IMG/VR virus record: IMGVR_UViG_3300010279_000202
Coordinates: 1 to 9,195 of that record
Origin: a virus
Taxonomy: Duplodnaviria > Heunggongvirae > Uroviricota > Caudoviricetes
Reading direction: 5' to 3' (one strand)
DNA: 9,195 nt
Under the pieces are notes generated by a model. The model saw nothing but the letters and a program-made list of their open reading frames with translations, was not told the DNA's origin and did not search any database. Positions 1 through 6,590 of the stretch are shown here, one piece after another. Positions within the stretch are counted from its first letter, which is position 1; each line of letters begins with the position of its first letter. A program made the translations under genes and the position numbers.

Positions 1-706
1 CCACAGGGCATACTTTTGCACGCATCGGCGCGGCGCGTTCTTCCATCATCTGAACATATGCTGTAGCGCGATCGTCATACGGGCGAATATCCGCCTCTTT
101 CAGAGGTCCGCTATCCTGCGTTGCGGCTTTCATCTTATTTATTGATATACGGCAAACTTCTTCCGGCATCAGGTGCATCATGTTGCGCATGAAAGCCCAC
201 CAGCACAGTTCCTGAATACTTAAATCATGGCCATCTGAAAGCCCCATTTCCTGACGGGCGACATCCAGTATCCAGTTAACGCGATTATTATGCAGCGTTT
301 CTTTCAGCTCATTAAAACCACGCATCCGGTAATGGTTATCGTGATGCCAGCACAACAACACCGCGCTATTGTCTCGTTCAGCGTGGACAATATGGTTGTC
401 ACACCAACTACGATCTGCGGCCTGGCATTGACCCTCTTTCCTACGCAACCACGCCACCAGCGCGTCAATTCCACCAATACGGCGAAACAGTTCATCGCTG
501 TTAAAAAACGGCTGCAACGCCTCATTTGTTGCCATAGTCTGCTCGGAAACAACGAGGCCGTCGTCCATGTGCTCGATTAACTCACGCGGCACCGGCTCCA
601 TAATAAATTTACGGCCAGCCTCCACCAGCTTTCTGACTTCCTGATCCACTTTGAATGTGGCGACGCCAAGCTCTTTTTGTACAAAGGGAGTAATTACGGC
701 TTTCAC
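1..706 (-). CDS. Post-doc gene, Cys/His-rich hypothetical protein (possibly P1 pdcB-like); N-terminal 235 codons, C-terminus beyond window
   Basis: Hand translation of the third minus frame is open from 706 to the window edge ([34 protein letters not shown]...[39 protein letters not shown]...). Probable GTG start at 706 with AAAGGTG SD upstream; in-frame TAA at 734-736. Absent from the ORF track, probably because it has no stop in the window. Position after doc and the small ORF fits my recollection of P1 order doc-pdcA-pdcB; identity not verified. Confidence 0.6.
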
Positions 707-733
707 ATCACACCTTTCATCACTGATTGGGCT

Positions 734-913
734 TTATCTGCTGCCCGGCATTCTCTGTTTAAGCACAACCATTTCCTGACGGCATAACACAGCAATAGCG
801 GTCCTGGCACCAATTTGCTTACCAACCAGGTATTGCTTTACCTCGCGGCGACTCACGCCATCAAGAAGCATCTTTAACGCTTCACGGGACAATTTGTTGT
901 ATTTACGTGCCAT
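734..913 (-). CDS. Small post-doc protein, 59 aa (possibly pdcA-like)
   Basis: Track ORF 734..934; ATG at 913 (MARKYNKLSREALK...) lies 5 nt after the doc stop (TAG 918-920), whereas the 934 start would overlap doc by 17 nt. No strong SD for either start. Confidence 0.45.
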   Translation of the reverse strand: MARKYNKLSREALKMLLDGVSRREVKQYLVGKQIGARTAIAVLCRQEMVVLKQRMPGSR

Positions 914-917
914 TAAT

Positions 918-1298
918 CTACTCTGCGGAACCATACAATCTACGTAACGTGTCGGCGACAGAAGATACAGATATCTCTCCGGTCGCAGCCCCTACGGTAA
1001 GGTCTGCCAGTTCAGGTGAATCAAATACCTGCACCCCGTTACGGCGTAGAAATAACAGCGCACTGTTTAGCGCGGTACGCTTATTGGCATCATTGAATAT
1101 ATGCCCTCTCGCTGTAGCCACCAGGTAGGTGGCGGAGACTTCGAAAAGGTCGGTGATCTCTTCGTAGGCAACTCTGGCCTGAACTCTCCCGATAATGGCC
1201 TCTGCCCTACCCGGATCAGACATTCCCGGCAGGCCGCCGTAGCGGCTTATATTCGCATCATGAAGCGCAATAAGTTCTTCCGGTGATATATGCCTCAT
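918..1298 (-). CDS. doc: Doc toxin (death on curing; Fic-fold kinase)
   Basis: 126-aa [25 protein letters not shown]... containing the Fic-type motif HIFNDANKR; matches P1 Doc as I recall it, including its 126-aa length. Start ATG overlaps the phd stop by 1 nt (TAATG at 1296-1300). Confidence 0.93.
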
Positions 1299-1519
1299 TA
1301 TCGGTTAACCAGTTCCTTGTTGGTGGAGTCCAGGGTGTCAAACAGGGATGCAAATTCAGCATCCAGCGCCGCTTTTTTGTAGGCTTCGAAAGTAGCCTTG
1401 CTGACAATTACTGCTGGCTCACGGCCTCTGCGGGTGATTTCAACCTCTTCCCCGGCTTCAACATTGTTGAGCACTTCAGAAAGGTTGCCACGCGCGGTAC
1501 GGAAGTTAATGGATTGCAT
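1298..1519 (-). CDS. phd: Phd antitoxin (prevents host death)
   Basis: 73-aa product [73 protein letters not shown], matching recalled P1 Phd. ATG at 1519 preceded by AGGTG SD; the track's GTG at 1525 adds two residues and is less likely. Confidence 0.93.
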
Positions 1520-1525
1520 AAACAC

Positions 1526-1556
1526 CTCGTGTACTCGTTATGTGTACACAATTATA
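1526..1556 (-). promoter_or_regulatory. phd-doc promoter/operator: two GTGTAC-core palindromic sites next to a TATAAT -10
   Basis: Between the phd SD and a perfect minus-strand TATAAT (plus coords 1551-1556) lie TGTGTACACA (1541-1550) and a second GTGTAC core (1530-1535). This matches the known arrangement in which Phd/Doc autorepress via palindromic operators; the -35 is not obvious. Confidence 0.55.
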
Positions 1557-1591
1557 AACTTCACAGGCATAAAGCACCAGCACTTTGCAGC

Positions 1592-1981
1592 TTAAATAAC
1601 CGGACAATCATCAAATTCCCCACTTCGGGCATCATTGATGACATGAGTGATCACACCAAAAACAGCATTACTGCCCGTGTATCCATCGTCATCTACTGGT
1701 AACGCCTCTTTCTTCCCGGTGCTTAAATCCTCCAGGTGCTGGCGCGGATACTTCCTGTATCTCTTTATGCGATATTCACCCTCCATAGCGCACACAAGCA
1801 GAGAACCATCAACCGGAGTAAGCGAGGAATCAACCACCAGCAAAGCACCCTGCAATATTCCCTCACGGTGATGGCTATCAGCTGCCCGCATGAAGTAGGT
1901 TGCTGATGGATGCCTGATTAGTTGCTGATCAAGAGAAATTCGGCTTTCAACATAATCCGCCGCAGGAGAAGGGAAGCCCAT
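1592..1981 (-). CDS. humD: HumD, UmuD'-like translesion-synthesis accessory protein (S24 LexA-type fold)
   Basis: 129-aa ORF starting MGFPSPAADYVE..., resembling the N-terminus of processed UmuD'. GAGGTG SD about 9 nt upstream of the ATG at 1981; LexA box 22 nt further upstream; lies directly upstream of phd-doc as in P1. Confidence 0.85.
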   Translation of the reverse strand: MGFPSPAADYVESRISLDQQLIRHPSATYFMRAADSHHREGILQGALLVVDSSLTPVDGSLLVCAMEGEYRIKRYRKYPRQHLEDLSTGKKEALPVDDDGYTGSNAVFGVITHVINDARSGEFDDCPVI

Positions 1982-2000
1982 AGCGTTTTCACCTCAATAA

Positions 2001-2020
2001 TACTGTTCATTTATACAGTA
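2001..2020. promoter_or_regulatory. LexA (SOS) box
   Basis: TACTGTTCATTTATACAGTA matches the consensus TACTGTATATATATACAGTA at 17/20 with both CTGT and ACAG arms intact (CTGT 2003-2006, ACAG 2015-2018). Sits in the divergent region between humD (start 1981) and the plus-strand operon (start 2156). Confidence 0.75.
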
Positions 2021-2155
2021 TACATTAAAGAGGCACCTTTGGTGCAAACGCGTTACGTACATCAACCACCGCTGATGATTTTGTGCTCTTTGCTACTATT
2101 CATCACCAACGGATCAGCGTAACCTCGTTGCCAATCAGTTAATAAGGAATTAGCT

Positions 2156-2740
2156 ATGCCTAATCGCATTCCTCTCGATCCTGTATTGCCCAAAAATTTT
2201 GACTGCACTCCTAACGAGAAACGCTCTAAAGCTCAGCTGGACGCCTGGTGGGACCATCCATATGGGGTTACACAACCTGACGGGAAAATTGTAGTTTATT
2301 GTCTGAATGGTGGGGCGTGGGACCGTCCATCCGTGCTTTGTTTGGCAGATAACTATGATGAAGCCTGTGAACTTGCCGAAAGACAGCAGGCAAGCTGGGT
2401 AAAAACACGGTCTGAACCGACATTCATGTTTTCAAAAGAACCGCCATTTATACTGGCGAGGATGCCGCAGCGACCGGATCATCAACAAGAAATTGTTGCT
2501 GAATTTTCCTCAAGGGATGAGATAAATCTCTTCTCATTAAAGCAGGAAGAAAGGGATCGCGTCGAAGTGTCTCCAACTCTCGACCACAACCGGATGAACC
2601 TGGCCCAGCTCGCCTGGTACAGCAAAGAATTAGAGATGTCTATTGCCCGGCTTGAAAACGAAAAAGCCGCTATCCAAGTCCAGCACGAAGTAGTTCTGAA
2701 CCGGATTAGAGAAATGCAAAACGATAACAGGGGATTTTGA
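2156..2740 (+). CDS. Hypothetical protein, 194 aa (N-terminal globular region plus C-terminal predicted coiled coil)
   Basis: Long ORF with AAGGAA SD 7-12 nt upstream of the ATG; stop TGA at 2738-2740 abuts the next ATG. No antisense ORF of at least 60 aa spans it. No catalytic motif recognised. Confidence 0.75.
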   Translation: MPNRIPLDPVLPKNFDCTPNEKRSKAQLDAWWDHPYGVTQPDGKIVVYCLNGGAWDRPSVLCLADNYDEACELAERQQASWVKTRSEPTFMFSKEPPFILARMPQRPDHQQEIVAEFSSRDEINLFSLKQEERDRVEVSPTLDHNRMNLAQLAWYSKELEMSIARLENEKAAIQVQHEVVLNRIREMQNDNRGF

Positions 2741-3097
2741 ATGGCTAAAATCGAGTACCATCGTGATCGCGGTAATTACCTGGAAATATACGATCATGAA
2801 TCTCTTAACGATATCAACGATGCGTTATATGAATACTGTGAAAAAACGAGCATCACAGATGCACCTGATGCATTTGTCGAGCTGCCGGTATATCTCCGCG
2901 ACATCTATGCAATACGAACACCGCCCGTATCGGTGATTCACATTGGCTATGTCCGCCTGTCCATCGAAGAAGATGAAGATCGTTATATCGTGCGCCACTA
3001 TACATTGGACAGAAAAGAACTTCCTAATGAATGGAACATGAGTAATTTCTACAACGGTGAATATGGCTTAAAATCCGCTAATAATTTACGGTCATAA
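2741..3097 (+). CDS. Hypothetical acidic protein, 118 aa
   Basis: ATG directly follows the upstream TGA (TGAATG), with AGGGGA SD inside the end of the upstream gene, indicating translational coupling. Product has net negative charge (about 23 D/E versus 13 K/R). No recognisable motif. Confidence 0.75.
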   Translation: MAKIEYHRDRGNYLEIYDHESLNDINDALYEYCEKTSITDAPDAFVELPVYLRDIYAIRTPPVSVIHIGYVRLSIEEDEDRYIVRHYTLDRKELPNEWNMSNFYNGEYGLKSANNLRS

Positions 3098-3186
3098 TCT
3101 ATACAGGCATGTATAACAACAACGAGCCTATTAGCTGTCAACAACGTTATTTCCTCAAATAAGAAAAAGCAGAAAACAAATTGTTT

Positions 3187-3207
3187 AAGGTCACAAATTG
3201 TGGCCTT
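3187..3207. other. Hairpin: 9-bp stem (one U-G wobble) with 3-nt loop, flanked by the palindrome AAACAAATTGTTT
   Basis: AAGGTCACA-AAT-TGTGGCCTT. On the minus strand the stem is followed by AAACAATTTGTTTTCTGCTTTTTC, so it could terminate leftward transcripts, but the T-run is not immediately adjacent. Confidence 0.3.
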
Positions 3208-3856
3208 GATGGAGGAGGGAGGCTTATTGGCTATGGCTAAAAATCAAATTAGACACTTCATGTTGCTGTAGCTCATCAAGATCCGAGGCCACAAAACCTT
3301 TTCCGAAAAACTTCACAAGTAACTCACTAGCCGCATCATTGTCACCTATTACACGAAAGTCATACGGCAACGTCGCAAGTTGACGATGTAATCCTGCTGA
3401 GAAAGTCGAATCTAACAGCGCCCAGAATTCCCACCGCAGGATAATACTCGCCTCTTAATACTGTATATATGTTGTTACGATATGTTTTTCTGTCTCTAAA
3501 AAAAGATGTTAATAGAATGCTAACCATTGAAGTGGATAAAAATATACAATTCCAACAAACGTTATTTTTAACAATTTTTTTCTTTGCGTTGACTTTCCCG
3601 GACACCTTGTCTGACCGAAGGTGCGCGAAAGCCACTTTTTCCTTCCTGAGTTATCCACAAAGTTATGCACTTGCAAGAGGGCCATTTTCTACATATTGTG
3701 GTGGCTAACAGATGAAATGAATGTAGATTAATTGAAGATAAGGAGAAAATTTGAGATGCAATCATGACGTTAATAGATAGGGTCTGCATTACAGACCCCA
3801 CCCGCATCAAGGAATTAGCCGTTCCCTGATGTTTTTCCGAAAACATGTGCCGTAAG

Positions 3857-3923
3857 CTCACGTTAACGACTTTCATTCACCGAATCCAACTATATAGGGG
3901 TTGGGTTTCTACGTCAACGTGAG
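3857..3923. promoter_or_regulatory. Inverted-repeat pair: 13-bp arms (12/13 match) separated by about 41 bp; candidate operator
   Basis: Left arm CTCACGTTAACGA (3857-3869); reverse complement of right arm (3911-3923) is CTCACGTTGACGT. The arms flank an AT-rich spacer with TATATA (3891-3896) and lie about 40 bp upstream of the small ORF at 3960. Confidence 0.35.
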
Positions 3924-3959
3924 CAAGTGCACCTTTACATTTGACAAGGAACCACCTGA

Positions 3960-4097
3960 ATGAACGCTTTTTTTCAGTTCCTGAGTGCATTTTTAGATGC
4001 GCCTATTATTAGCCAGATTCTGGCTATTATCCTCATCATCGTTTTGATTTTGCTTTTAAGGTCAGTAAAAAATGGAATTATGCACTGGCTTACTTAA
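3960..4097 (+). CDS. Small hydrophobic (single-TM-like) protein, 45 aa
   Basis: ATG at 3960 with AAGGAA SD 9-14 nt upstream; product MNAFFQFLSAFLDAPIISQILAIILIIVLILLLRSVKNGIMHWLT has an uninterrupted hydrophobic core and basic tail. Stop is embedded in the palindrome ATGTTTCAGTGAAACAT. Below the track's size cutoff. Confidence 0.35.
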   Translation: MNAFFQFLSAFLDAPIISQILAIILIIVLILLLRSVKNGIMHWLT

Positions 4098-4172
4098 TGT
4101 TTCAGTGAAACATTAAAATCTCCTTGATGTGGAAACAATCATTTTCTGTATGTGCTGGTGGGCACCTGTAGT

Positions 4173-4535
4173 TCAGCTTTCGTTGGCATTTAACTTCGTC
4201 TTTGCTTTCTCCACCAGCAACTTCCAGATGCCTATTTCATTAGCAGCCGCCTTGATGGCGGCATAAAAAGCATCTTGCTGATCGTAACGCTGGATCTGTT
4301 TTTTCAGTTTTGCCTCCACCAATTTAATTTCATTACGTGCTTTCTGAAGCCGCATCACCGCCCGGTTACGTCTGTTCTTGTATAGCGTGTTAATCTCTGA
4401 CAATTGCTTTAATTTACCAGCCTGACTGTGGATTATCGCCTCCCTGGCTTCTGCCGTGCGTCTCATCTGATCTCTTAAGAGTTCACCGTTTTCGATAATT
4501 CTTTCAAGGTGTTTGATGTGATCTGCAACTCTCAT
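4173..4535 (-). CDS. Hypothetical coiled-coil protein, 120 aa
   Basis: ORF rich in heptad-like K/E/R/L/A/Q stretches; start ATG overlaps the upstream stop (ATGA at 4532-4535). Last gene of the minus-strand operon. Confidence 0.65.
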   Translation of the reverse strand: MRVADHIKHLERIIENGELLRDQMRRTAEAREAIIHSQAGKLKQLSEINTLYKNRRNRAVMRLQKARNEIKLVEAKLKKQIQRYDQQDAFYAAIKAAANEIGIWKLLVEKAKTKLNANES

Positions 4536-5161
4536 ACTTCACCCTCGCTTGTATCACCAGCGTCCACCAACGACAATAAAGCCCTGGCCATCTTATGAAC
4601 CAACAGTGCATCAATAATGCCAAGCGTATGCCCCGGCTTAATGTTTAATGCTGCCTCAAGATGACACCTTTCCAGACCGCTTTTCTCGGCTTGTTTATGA
4701 TGATATGGCGTAATAACGTCGCCCAAAACACGGCTAATTCTTTCTCGTAATTGCTGGGTGCCAGCACACTTGATCGCTGTATCGTGGAGACGGTTAACCA
4801 GTTCGCGATAAACATGCGGCTTAATGCGGATACGTTCACCGGTGACGCCCTTTCCTGGCGCTGGCACCGAACTATCCGGAATATCCGGATAGTTGCCAGC
4901 CTCGTAAGCTACCCGCAGCCAGTGCATGAATGTTTCAGTGGACACACAACCACAGTCCACATCGATTTTTCCGCGTTGCTGTTCCAGCCACTGCTCAAAA
5001 TTCAATCTACACGTATTACTTTCATGTTGCTCTTTTTGTCTCAAGGCCAGCATCTGCTGGGCTATTTCCAATACTTCATCTGCCGTATATCCAGCACCGT
5101 GACCATACATTTCGATACGGGAAATAATCTCTGATATACGCTCTTCAGTTATTCTGGTCAT
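4532..5161 (-). CDS. Hypothetical protein, about 209 aa
   Basis: Track ORF 4532..5176; I prefer the ATG at 5161 (MTRITEERISE...) because it forms an ATGA overlap with the upstream stop (5158-5160), the pattern used throughout this operon. The ATG at 5176 remains possible. Confidence 0.65.
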   Translation of the reverse strand: MTRITEERISEIISRIEMYGHGAGYTADEVLEIAQQMLALRQKEQHESNTCRLNFEQWLEQQRGKIDVDCGCVSTETFMHWLRVAYEAGNYPDIPDSSVPAPGKGVTGERIRIKPHVYRELVNRLHDTAIKCAGTQQLRERISRVLGDVITPYHHKQAEKSGLERCHLEAALNIKPGHTLGIIDALLVHKMARALLSLVDAGDTSEGEV

Positions 5162-5532
5162 TTCTTTTTGCGCCATTTCTTTTCACATTCCTTAGTCCAT
5201 TTTTCAATGTTCATTTTGGCAATATCAGTCATTCCATCACCTAAGAAATACTTTCTCCGGTACGTCTTGCACTTAAACCACACTACAACAGCCACCAGCC
5301 AGAAAATAAAAGGCCATACAGCAATACCAACTCCAGCCGCGATAAAGCCCAATAGCCATAAATGAAGCTCTCCAACTTCTGTTTGCGGCAATATTCTTAA
5401 AGAATTAAGCAGCAGACTGAAGGAATGGTCGTATGCATTGGCGGTATAAGACATGCAATCCATATAATTAAAGTCATAGCCTGCGGCTGCCGCCCATAAT
5501 GGGCGGTCAAGAAAATGTTTTAGTGTCATCAT
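5158..5532 (-). CDS. Small membrane protein, 124 aa, two predicted TM helices plus lysine-rich C-tail; superinfection-exclusion-like by architecture
   Basis: Hydrophobic stretches LHLWLLGFIAAGVGIAVWPFIFWLVAVVVWF followed by the charged tail KWTKECEKKWRKKK. Functional guess rests on architecture only. Confidence 0.6.
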   Translation of the reverse strand: MMTLKHFLDRPLWAAAAGYDFNYMDCMSYTANAYDHSFSLLLNSLRILPQTEVGELHLWLLGFIAAGVGIAVWPFIFWLVAVVVWFKCKTYRRKYFLGDGMTDIAKMNIEKWTKECEKKWRKKK

Positions 5533-5538
5533 ATAAAT

Positions 5539-5832
5539 TTAAGGTTCAGACCAGTTATCTTCAATAGCAATGCTTAATCTTTGTAGCCATTCTGCTAATT
5601 TCAGCATTGCTTCTCTTTCGCTTAAACCACGAGGAAAATCATCAAGCGAAATTGTTGGCTTGAAGCCCCCGTAATTATCCATTTCAACAGTCAGATTTTG
5701 CTCCAGCACGGTATTCCTTACGCGGCTGTTGTGTCGAAGCAAATATACTGAACGTGATTTATTGGTTTTATGGTCAAACTGATATTCGGTAAGTATCATC
5801 TGGCTTTTGCCATGACTATTACCTCTCCACAT
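5539..5832 (-). CDS. Hypothetical protein, 97 aa
   Basis: Track ORF 5539..5919; preferred start is the ATG at 5832 (MWRGNSHGKSQ...) preceded by TGAGGT SD. The longer N-terminal extension is hydrophobic, out-of-pattern, and overlaps the small ORF at 5840-5962. Confidence 0.55.
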   Translation of the reverse strand: MWRGNSHGKSQMILTEYQFDHKTNKSRSVYLLRHNSRVRNTVLEQNLTVEMDNYGGFKPTISLDDFPRGLSEREAMLKLAEWLQRLSIAIEDNWSEP

Positions 5833-5839
5833 ACTTACC

Positions 5840-5962
5840 TCACTTAATAAAACAACTCCATACGTAGTTGATGATTTTTTCCCACGTAATATAAATATGC
5901 ACTCCAGCAGAAAAACCAAAACCTACAATTACTGAAAAAATCAAAACATTTACTTTTGACAT
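5840..5962 (-). CDS. Possible small membrane peptide, 40 aa
   Basis: ATG at 5962; product MSKVNVLIFSVIVGFGFSAGVHIYITWEKIINYVWSCFIK. Its TGA stop lies inside the SD of the next gene. It fills an otherwise unexplained 180-bp gap in a tightly packed operon, but its own SD is weak. Confidence 0.3.
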   Translation of the reverse strand: MSKVNVLIFSVIVGFGFSAGVHIYITWEKIINYVWSCFIK

Positions 5963-6010
5963 TATAAATTTTCTCTCGGTGTCGTAGGTGATAGCACCAT
6001 AATTGATAAT

Positions 6011-6244
6011 TTAGTGAGTTAGCAGTTCCATTTTTTGGATGATTTCCGCATGAGCATCATCGTTATCAACACTTAACTCGTTTAATGCCTCTCGCACCAC
6101 ATCAACTTCTTCTGGTTGGAAGAAATCATCTCGGTAGTCACCAAATAGAACCGAAACAAGCCTGCCACCAGCAACATCAAGATTGGCGCTAACAGGTGGC
6201 TCTTTACCATCCTCAAATTCGACTACAAAAGTTATTTTTCCCAT
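6011..6244 (-). CDS. Hypothetical acidic protein, 77 aa
   Basis: Track ORF 6011..6262; preferred ATG at 6244 (MGKITFVVEFEDGK...) preceded by GGTGG SD. Confidence 0.6.
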   Translation of the reverse strand: MGKITFVVEFEDGKEPPVSANLDVAGGRLVSVLFGDYRDDFFQPEEVDVVREALNELSVDNDDAHAEIIQKMELLTH

Positions 6245-6246
6245 CG

Positions 6247-6330
6247 TTACCACCAACGACAAATTGAATACAAACCCAGTGCTGCCGCCATCACAATTCC
6301 TACCGTGGTGAATGCTTCAGGCCAGCTCAT
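6247..6330 (-). CDS. Possible hydrophobic micro-ORF, 27 aa
   Basis: ATG at 6330 overlaps the upstream stop (TAATG); product MSWPEAFTTVGIVMAAALGLYSICRWW; stop is 2 nt before the next start. Fits the coupling pattern but is very short. Confidence 0.25.
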   Translation of the reverse strand: MSWPEAFTTVGIVMAAALGLYSICRWW

Positions 6331-6590
6331 TATCTCACCTCCAGTCTCCATACCGCCTGACCAATCCGGCTGGCATGGGTATCTTTGGATACTGTTCCGT
6401 CTTTAGCCATCTCCATAAGAATTTTGCGCAAATCTGCCGAACGCCATTCTTCATCAGGAAATTCCTTCTCCATTGCCAACCGCAGATTCCAGGTTGCCAT
6501 CCTGAATGGATATTCCCCGCCGAGAGCTTTATCTTGCAGGGCAGCCCGGGAACGCATCACCTGCAAAACCTTCTCTTTTACATCCATCAT
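6330..6590 (-). CDS. Hypothetical protein, 86 aa
   Basis: Track ORF 6330..6662; preferred ATG at 6590 (MMDVKEKVLQ...) forms an ATGA overlap with the upstream stop and follows a strong AGGAGG SD. Confidence 0.65.
   Translation of the reverse strand: MMDVKEKVLQVMRSRAALQDKALGGEYPFRMATWNLRLAMEKEFPDEEWRSADLRKILMEMAKDGTVSKDTHASRIGQAVWRLEVR

Follow-up and report, generated by a model that had tools for sequence, protein, structure and literature searches.

Does a stretch of viral DNA that carries the phd-doc addiction module and humD of phage P1 mark a junction at which P1 genes have been fused to foreign cargo, or does it belong throughout to a P1-like phage-plasmid? The question is raised by IMG/VR record IMGVR_UViG_3300010279_000202, of which positions 1 to 9,195 were analysed here (9,195 nucleotides, hereafter the window). 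An earlier note on this DNA had offered two alternatives, a P1-like phage-plasmid with a replaced variable slot or another element that had captured the P1 addiction/SOS module; the first stands and the second does not hold for the window. We conclude with high confidence that the window belongs to a Punavirus, a P1-like phage-plasmid of P7/SJ46 type, and lies in the family's known hypervariable accessory region between pdcB/phd-doc/humD and pap, and that it differs from reference P1 by a substitution in the slot of the hot gene and, probably, by a deletion in P1 itself.

Identity of the element

In a plasmid search the E. coli plasmid pRHBSTW-00313_2 (CP056619.1, 110,691 bp) covered 100% of the window in one alignment, at 99.6% identity over 9195 bases, and window coverage reached at least 80% in 20 plasmid records. 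The top megablast matches among phage records were likewise P1-like: Salmonella phage SJ46 covers 81% of the window at 98.1% identity and several isolates named 'P1' cover 78%, with P7 at 66% and reference P1 at 43%. To the left of the window-equivalent, pRHBSTW-00313_2 carries cre, coi, c1, pacB, pacA, lpa and pdcB; the right flank holds pap, pmgS, ppp, tail and baseplate genes, ban and dmt; and the remainder includes repL, kilA-type antirepressors, icd, and tail fibre, lysis, portal and head-processing genes. At its two edges the window breaks off inside pdcB and an ead-like gene, and the immunity, packaging, morphogenesis and lytic-replication backbone is present in the near-identical plasmid, as are the plasmid maintenance markers that the earlier note had wanted checked (a RepB-family initiator, parA and parB). 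Outside the window, at positions 3713-12878 of L004 (pRHBSTW-00313_2), a TnAs1-type transposon with tet(A)-tetR lies between ref/lysogeny-establishment genes and cre/c1.

From position 1 to about 5025 the window is colinear at 98-99% identity with eight P7/SJ46-type elements (SJ46, P7 and six further plasmids), and positions 1-4172, described by the earlier note as a mosaic junction, are therefore a conserved block within their own lineage that contains no junction. The same arrangement speaks to whether assembly could have joined a lambdoid prophage and a P1-like plasmid of one sample into a chimera. Segments near-identical to prophage copies are repeats able to mislead assemblers, but the order from 1 to about 5025 recurs in at least eight independently sequenced complete plasmids and phages and all 9195 bases lie in one complete plasmid, which leaves a chimera barely conceivable.

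Reference P1 aligns without gaps to 1-2723 at 97.1% identity, lxr included, and aligns again to 3552-4907 at 94.4% identity, over the upfO/N/M region, pmgV and part of pmgU. The breaks against P1 are thus at 2723/2724, 3551/3552 and 4907/4908, not at about 2020, where the junction had been placed, and the claim that no other P1-type gene lies to the right of 2020 fails with it. Colinearity with canonical P1 over the whole of 2000-9195, which the earlier note had named as the result that would overturn it, was not found, although about 2.1 kb of that range is nevertheless colinear.

Capture of the pdcA-doc-phd-humD module by a non-P1 element, either another plasmid or a lambdoid prophage, would make the window a true inter-element fusion. 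The gene context of humD is indeed another one in D6 and pRHBSTW-00176_2, with pdcA-doc-phd accompanying it in D6, and humD-phd-doc is shared with a more distant subgroup (PMC9603915). Against this, the window matches in one piece, at 99.6%, a complete plasmid in which the full P1 backbone lies to either side, genes of P1 type reach as far as 2723 and return over 3552-4907, and pdcB, which D6 lacks at the corresponding site, is present at 1-706; we consider such a fusion very improbable. No transposase family was matched among 20 window open reading frames (ORFs) scanned against Pfam and PHROGs, and in that scan nothing marked the DNA as cargo borne by an insertion sequence (IS) or transposon. 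An Rfam scan of the whole window at E<=1 returned no RNA family.

The P1 addiction/SOS module and lxr

The left part of the P7/SJ46-type element in the window is made up of the following features.

1-706, minus strand: pdcB', 5' part (N-terminal 235 residues; DUF968/HNH-type), cut by the left edge of the window; 226/235 residues as in P1 PdcB; Pfam DUF968; phrog_96
734-934, minus strand: pdcA (fdc in P7); 63/66 residues as in P1 PdcA; phrog_3345
918-1298, minus strand: doc, addiction-module toxin; 126/126 residues as in P1 Doc; Pfam Fic/DOC
1298-1519, minus strand: phd, antitoxin; 73/73 residues as in P1 Phd; Pfam PhdYeFM_antitox
1528-1579, minus strand: phd promoter and operator palindromes; TGTGTACACA at 1541-1550 and an imperfect copy at 1528-1537
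1592-1981, minus strand: humD (UmuD'-like); 128/129 residues as in P1 HumD; Pfam Peptidase_S24
2001-2020, no strand: LexA box TACTGTTCATTTATACAGTA, between the divergent humD and lxr; identical to the LexA site annotated in P1
2156-2740, plus strand: lxr (P1 'LexA regulated function'; P7 upf94.2), 194 residues; phrog_6164

Phd and Doc are identical to their P1 counterparts, as they had appeared to be in the earlier note, and its account of humD and of the palindromic phd operator is borne out as well, since 1520-1594 equals base for base the Pphd region annotated in P1 (NC_005856); it had overlooked pdcB' and pdcA. The phd stop overlaps the doc start, base 1298 being common to both genes, and an antitoxin gene upstream of and overlapping a Fic-fold toxin gene, behind a palindromic operator, identifies a type II toxin-antitoxin system of the Phd/Doc kind. 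The phd-doc pair of P1 is an autoregulated addiction module. The pair in the window, its identity read from sequence and its function from the established work on P1, would act in the same way. HumD has the S24 peptidase fold, the length of UmuD' and a LexA box ahead of its gene. Lxr is identical to P1 Lxr at 176/189 residues, with the difference confined to the C-terminal tail, and lies in the same position, divergent from humD across the LexA box; the 'novel operon' reported earlier is this P1 gene followed by upf93.6 of P7.

The slot that differs from P1

Between lxr and the upfO-equivalent region the window and reference P1 part company. The slot at 2724-3551 measures 828 bp here and 306 bp, with hot, in P1, and no P1 match was found over 2724-3551.

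2741-3097, plus strand: upf93.6 homologue, 118 residues, acidic (isoelectric point 4.8); annotated in P7 and SJ46; phrog_5797; absent from P1
3143-3435, minus strand: relic of a toprim-domain gene, of which only the last 66 codons are left (3227-3424)
3352-3360, no strand: empty IS903 target site; the annotated IS903 of P7 lies between its alignments to 1-3360 and 3352-5022, which share 9 bp
3436-3551, no strand: spacer of 116 bp with 28% GC, right end of the hot-replacing segment

Absence of a theta-like ORF (hot) had been noted before and is confirmed. In tblastn the best hit of P1 Hot in the window has E=0.16, no match at E<=1e-3 was found in the 49 kb around the window-equivalent in pRHBSTW-00313_2, and no theta-like (HolE) ORF lies between lxr and upfO. 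The AT-rich island is likewise real, with a GC content of 34-37% in 300-bp windows over 3301-3750 and of 28% over 3436-3551. The change relative to P1 is a substitution, with the 306-bp hot segment on one side and, on the other, 828 bp that comprise upf93.6, a 5'-truncated toprim-gene relic and an AT-rich spacer.

The relic is recognised from pRHBSTW-00176_2, in which an intact toprim gene of 174 residues directly adjoins humD: 3143-3435 is 89% identical in DNA to the 3' end and downstream flank of that gene, and the relic is 85% identical in amino acids to residues 109-174 of its product. The odd match of ORF 3224-3370 to phrog_17952, a 'DNA primase' PHROG, is explained by this origin. Pfam gave no hit for the toprim protein, for PmgT or for relatives of PmgT. 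In P7 an IS903 copy sits inside the relic with a 9-bp duplication; the window keeps the empty site.

A probable deletion in reference P1

The third break against P1 is of another kind. P1 up to position 9619 of L001 aligns to L004 (pRHBSTW-00313_2) up to 24907, which is window 4907, and the match resumes with 9618 of L001 at L004 31377, running at 98.3% for 2783 bp; at the join the two parts overlap by 2 nt (microhomology). Residues 1-232 of PmgT are 100% identical to the first 232 residues of the product of a 241-residue gene in L004, the first gene downstream of the C1 operator beside pap, and residues 232-307 of PmgT are encoded in an alternative frame of the pmgU-like gene. A 6,469-bp deletion in P1 would have joined PmgT residues 1-232 out of frame to the middle of the pmgU-like gene, and this fusion would account for the pmgT/pmgU overlap in the P1 annotation. 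We hold with fair but not complete confidence that reference P1 lost these 6,469 bp and that the string of ea-type genes at 4908-9195 is the common state and not inserted cargo. No statement on a deletion origin of pmgT was found in searchable papers.

The polarity could in principle be reversed, with a P1-like ancestor whose pmgT received the ea string (4908 onwards) by insertion in the P7/SJ46 lineage, and 'non-P1 cargo' would then be an apt description. Parts of the string (7400-8429) are 97-99% identical to Shiga toxin (Stx) prophages, which points to recent import of at least some modules, and one natural E. albertii plasmid has the P1-type junction at 100% identity. Yet both genes that an insertion would have interrupted are intact open reading frames in the window type, and the 76 codons by which P1 PmgT runs into the alternative frame of the pmgU-like gene are the signature of a deletion fusion. 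The P1 junction is also rare, being intact in 5/218 plasmid records with a match to one side or the other and in no phage records but the three reference entries of P1, and the S. Typhi relative of PmgT cited in the P1 record aligns only to about residue 239, which fits a native length near the 241 residues of the gene in L004. Insertion into pmgT is accordingly improbable in our judgement, and deletion in P1 is the reading that we retain below.

The ea-type gene string

What P1 would have lost is, as far as it lies in the window, a string of small genes on one strand.

5158-9195, minus strand: ea-type accessory string of lambdoid/P22-type small genes, from Pfam, PHROGs and the annotation of pRHBSTW-00313_2; absent from P1
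5158-5532, 5539-5832 and 6011-6244, minus strand: small accessory genes of the string
6330-6590, minus strand: eaa, annotated EaA in the near-identical plasmid and in matched phages
6587-7543, minus strand: DUF551 gene (Pfam DUF551, E=6.8e-21)
7540-8055, 8057-8245, 8418-8780 and 8777-8986, minus strand: small accessory genes of the string
8988 onwards, minus strand: ead/Ea22-like gene, running into the right end of the window

The remainder of the string consists of several PHROG families that have no assigned function. Stx phages and Stx-converting prophages match 6318-8429, specifically 6318-6812 and 7400-8429, at 96-99% DNA identity, and P22-like and HK620-type phages give weaker matches to genes annotated EaA, Ead or DUF551. 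The earlier description of a lambdoid-style early operon is thus fair as regards gene content (DUF551, EaA, Ead/Ea22-like). In lambdoid genomes the ea genes lie between int/xis and the recombination genes. Here the homology is of the lambdoid 'ea' kind and the location is not, as the genes sit in a P1-type backbone. Because 8057-8245 and 7540-8127 both match phrog_9263, we considered whether they are one frameshifted gene; this was rejected, as an Stx phage has the same two-ORF layout with its own ribosome-binding site (RBS) and ATG.

Breakpoints and origin of the mosaic

The alleles at the left of the region are unevenly distributed in PLSDB. A humD-lxr query (1592-2740) matched 651 records, 183 of them covering at least 80%; for upf93.6 with the AT-rich island (2741-3551) the figures are 183 and 95, and for the P1 hot segment 368 and 259. 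Among the rows sampled, humD-lxr matches below 80% coverage end near 2035, just past the LexA box, at the following site.

2033-2047, minus strand: small hairpin GCACC-AAA-GGTGC, a terminator-like hit and recurrent breakpoint

Alignments of D6 and pF16EC0319-1 end at 2035 and that of pRHBSTW-00176_2 at 2047, and the recurrent breakpoint at 2035-2047 separates the window from these three elements and not from P1. D6 and pF16EC0319-1 represent the commonest alternative, in which hot stands directly beside humD and lxr is missing.

The ea string is itself rich in short repeats at gene boundaries. Near-identical gene starts, ATGATCACTATTACCAAAGAGCG and variants, are found in three Ea-type paralogues (5139-5161, 7521-7543 and 8758-8780), a 24-bp box of RBS plus ATG is common to two further string genes (8051-8074 and 8982-9005), internal repeats of 30-45 bp link two Ea-type genes, and a 30-bp direct repeat occurs at 7103-7132 and 8436-8465. 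Alignment ends against 12 relatives form 25 clusters between 4173 and 9195. Eleven of the 25 fall within 15 bp of a gene boundary (2.3 expected) and 10 of the 25 at internal direct repeats (2.2 expected), an excess at repeats that is partly built in, as alignments extend through shared repeats, and a count in which the breakpoints are not independent events, both of which weaken the argument from it. In the SJ46 alignments window 7132 is followed by 8436, with the join exactly at the 30-bp repeat, and in those of P7 a point near 8074 is followed by 8982, with the join at the 24-bp box. We suggest that the diversity of the region would have arisen through homologous exchange with resident lambdoid prophages at short conserved gene-boundary sequences, to which P1 would have added an illegitimate deletion and P7 an IS insertion.

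Predicted control by LexA and C1

Because upf93.6 begins directly at the stop codon of lxr, the two genes probably form an operon. From the sequence, humD and the divergent lxr-upf93.6 pair share one LexA box and both would probably be SOS-induced: in the 400 bases upstream of lxr the only match to CTGT-N8-ACAG is the box at 2001-2020. The notion that lxr is LexA-regulated wherever it is present was rejected, as the homologues at 11 other loci have no LexA box within 400 bp upstream, and SOS control of lxr, if real, would therefore be specific to the P1-type arrangement. As for the minus-strand string, the window contains no C1 operator. In L004 an operator with one mismatch precedes the gene string (32251-32267), at the site where OpmgT / Op(hea) are annotated in P1 and P7, and judging by this operator of the near-identical plasmid the string down to pmgV would probably be a C1-repressed early operon with its promoter just outside the window.

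Several points weigh against the interpretation offered here. The backbone context is taken from a near-identical public plasmid and not from the window; the deletion polarity in P1 is argued from ORF structure and frequency and not from a rooted phylogeny; and control of lxr-upf93.6 by LexA, like that of the gene string by C1, is predicted from sequence only. The lxr start codon is 135 bp downstream of the LexA box, and no convincing lxr promoter was found. In a promoter/terminator scan, promoter-like sites over 1400-4300 were no more frequent than in shuffled sequence.

The lxr-upf93.6 cassette and the Lxr family

The two genes also behave as a unit in one comparison with pRHBSTW-00176_2.

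2048-3142, plus strand: lxr-upf93.6 cassette of 1,095 bp, missing between humD and the toprim gene in pRHBSTW-00176_2

The flanks at 1593-2047 and 3143-3435 align to neighbouring positions 5521-5972 and 6001-6294 of L006 (pRHBSTW-00176_2), so that the cassette has the LexA box of humD on one side and the toprim gene end on the other. Support for lxr and upf93.6 as an obligate pair is only partial: a divergent P1-like element keeps them adjacent (Lxr 69% and Upf93.6 58% identity) but has no humD, and in a Salmonella plasmid the Upf93.6 homologue comes after an unrelated gene of 320 residues. A mobile two-gene cassette of 1.1 kb with an undescribed function, for example in SOS or replication modulation, anti-defence or stability, is conceivable but in our view rather unlikely; in its favour are the breadth, the plasmid locations and the lack of structural relatives of the Lxr domain family described next, together with what the domain has acquired in P1-type elements, namely the long helix at its C-terminal end, the acidic partner and the LexA box.

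Neither Lxr nor Upf93.6 matched Pfam, NCBIfam or PADLOC, and PADLOC models of anti-phage defence gave 0 hits for 10 proteins from unannotated ORFs. Lxr consists of a conserved N-terminal domain and a C-terminal long helix. Its AlphaFold2 (AF2) model, with a predicted local distance difference test score (pLDDT) of 87.6, found no relative among solved or viral structures; the predicted structure of Upf93.6, a protein with 18 homologue clusters, has a pLDDT of 58. A profile search with the N-terminal domain (about 125 residues, within residues 1-135, window 2156-2560) returned 469 clusters at 50% identity. Its homologues, 52-62% identical, extend from enterobacteria to alpha- and beta-proteobacteria (Klebsiella, Pseudomonas, Xanthomonas, Burkholderia, Bradyrhizobium, Mesorhizobium) and lie on plasmids wherever their context was examined, namely Klebsiella phage-plasmids, P. 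aeruginosa plasmids, where the gene is beside a resolvase gene, and a Bradyrhizobium repABC plasmid; others are in contigs from environmental metagenomes, and the Xanthomonas, Burkholderia and Mesorhizobium matches are assigned by record name. Many members of the family have an N-terminal extension of about 60 residues, and in one case this extension matches the 'stability determinant' motif of PaaA2. The family to which the N-terminal part of Lxr belongs is uncharacterised and widespread on plasmids and phage-plasmids, and it matches no Pfam family and no known fold.

In the Klebsiella phage-plasmid contigs L009-L012 (6001-7763) a gene with HEPN_Toprim_N and HEPN_RiboL-PSP domains comes directly after the Lxr-domain gene; the two are flanked on one side by genes of recombination and replication (gp32-like, 5'-3' exonuclease, RecA) and on the other by one for DNA polymerase III alpha.

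From the nrdA-like segment to pmgU

The P1-type block that follows the hot slot contains a captured copy of E. coli chromosomal DNA.

3552-4172, minus strand: upfO/upfN/upfM-equivalent region, within the P1 alignment 3552-4907 (94.4%) and from tblastn of UpfO/N/M
3561-3689, plus strand: captured copy of the E. coli chromosomal region upstream of nrdA (ypaB); 124/130 positions identical to the chromosome
4173-4535, minus strand: pmgV; 115/120 residues as in P1 PmgV
4532-5176, minus strand: pmgU-like gene, 214 residues; 104/111 of the C-terminal 111 residues as in P1 PmgU; phrog_21459 and phrog_60

The nrdA-upstream copy (130 bp) is about 95% identical to the core chromosome, with a match in 5426/5426 E. 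coli genomes, and it retains DnaA boxes at 3651-3659 and 3663-3671, followed on the plus strand by a promoter-like TTGCAA-17-TATTGT (window 3561-3700). The P1 record flags only 56 bp of this segment; the copy in the window is longer and closer to the chromosome than that of P1, whose 'upfO' is a ypaB homologue. Downstream of it, at 3960-4097 on the plus strand, lies a strongly hydrophobic ORF of 45 residues (SJ46 gp085) that is intact in every panel element aligned across 3960-4097, P1 included (2 amino acid changes); the P1 annotation lacks it and has upfM on the other strand instead. Searches of PmgV and the small minus-strand ORFs against Pfam, NCBIfam and PADLOC gave nothing besides DUF551 and, for PmgV, a sub-threshold DndD coiled-coil hit. 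The N-terminus of the pmgU-like protein is an Ea-type 'MxxITxER' module.

Significance

The region is already known and the window holds an ordinary P7/SJ46-type version of it, which makes the present analysis a rediscovery. Region 8 (pmgT...lxr, humD) has been published as a variable region of P1-like phage-plasmids (PMC9603915), and RD-5 (pap to lxr) as one of five hot spots tied to low-GC loci, where other elements were described as 'closer to P7' or as having deletions (PMC6906374). About 30% of genes in P1-like phage-plasmids are recombining (PMC10879196), and in a CRISPR interference (CRISPRi) screen of P1 the assayed genes from pmgT to doc were non-essential for lytic growth, with upfM outside the assay (PMC10695390). 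As a published recombination hot spot whose genes are dispensable for P1 lytic growth, the locus itself is a finding of little weight.

It does offer a correction to those who use P1 as a yardstick, in that the pmgT/pmgU overlap is probably a deletion scar and about 6.5 kb carried by most relatives is missing from P1; it would therefore be a mistake to take 'non-P1' DNA here for cargo gained from elsewhere. The probable origin of pmgT by deletion is a point of detail and no discovery. More broadly, the region illustrates how phage-plasmids may trade small early genes with lambdoid prophages at conserved gene-boundary sequences, and it holds two unexplained leads, the Lxr domain family and the captured nrdA-upstream segment with its DnaA boxes.

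Comparison with known systems

Among named elements, P7 (AF503408 / NC_050152), with the order upf95.7-fdc-doc-phd-humD-upf94.2-upf93.6 ... upf90.8-upf89.5, is colinear with the window at 98-99% over 1-5022. It has upf94.2 (lxr), upf93.6, the toprim relic, the upfO/N/M-type region and pmgV in common with the window and likewise lacks hot; it differs by IS903 at 3352-3360, by a longer pmgU-like gene (432 residues) and by an ea string that matches in patches only (6805-7132 and 7400-8074). Salmonella phage SJ46 (NC_031129), over gp078-gp093, has the same gene order, with 99.0% identity over 1-5028 and 95.6% over 5058-7132, but is without 7133-8435, the flanks being joined at a 30-bp direct repeat. 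Reference P1 (NC_005856; pdcB-pdcA-doc-phd-humD-lxr-hot-upfONM-pmgV-pmgU-pmgT) is colinear at 94-97% over 1-2723 and 3552-4907, with identical LexA box and phd operator, whereas it has hot instead of upf93.6 and the toprim relic, lacks 6,469 bp of ea-type genes and has a fusion ORF as pmgT. Finally, the lambdoid and P22-like ea genes of Stx-converting prophages (EaA, Ead/Ea22, DUF551/HkaE) are 96-99% identical to the window over 6318-6812 and 7400-8429 and share with its genes the N-terminal 'MxxITKER...LARIALASLEAE' modules; unlike them, the copies in the window belong to a P1-type plasmid prophage, downstream of a P1 C1 operator.

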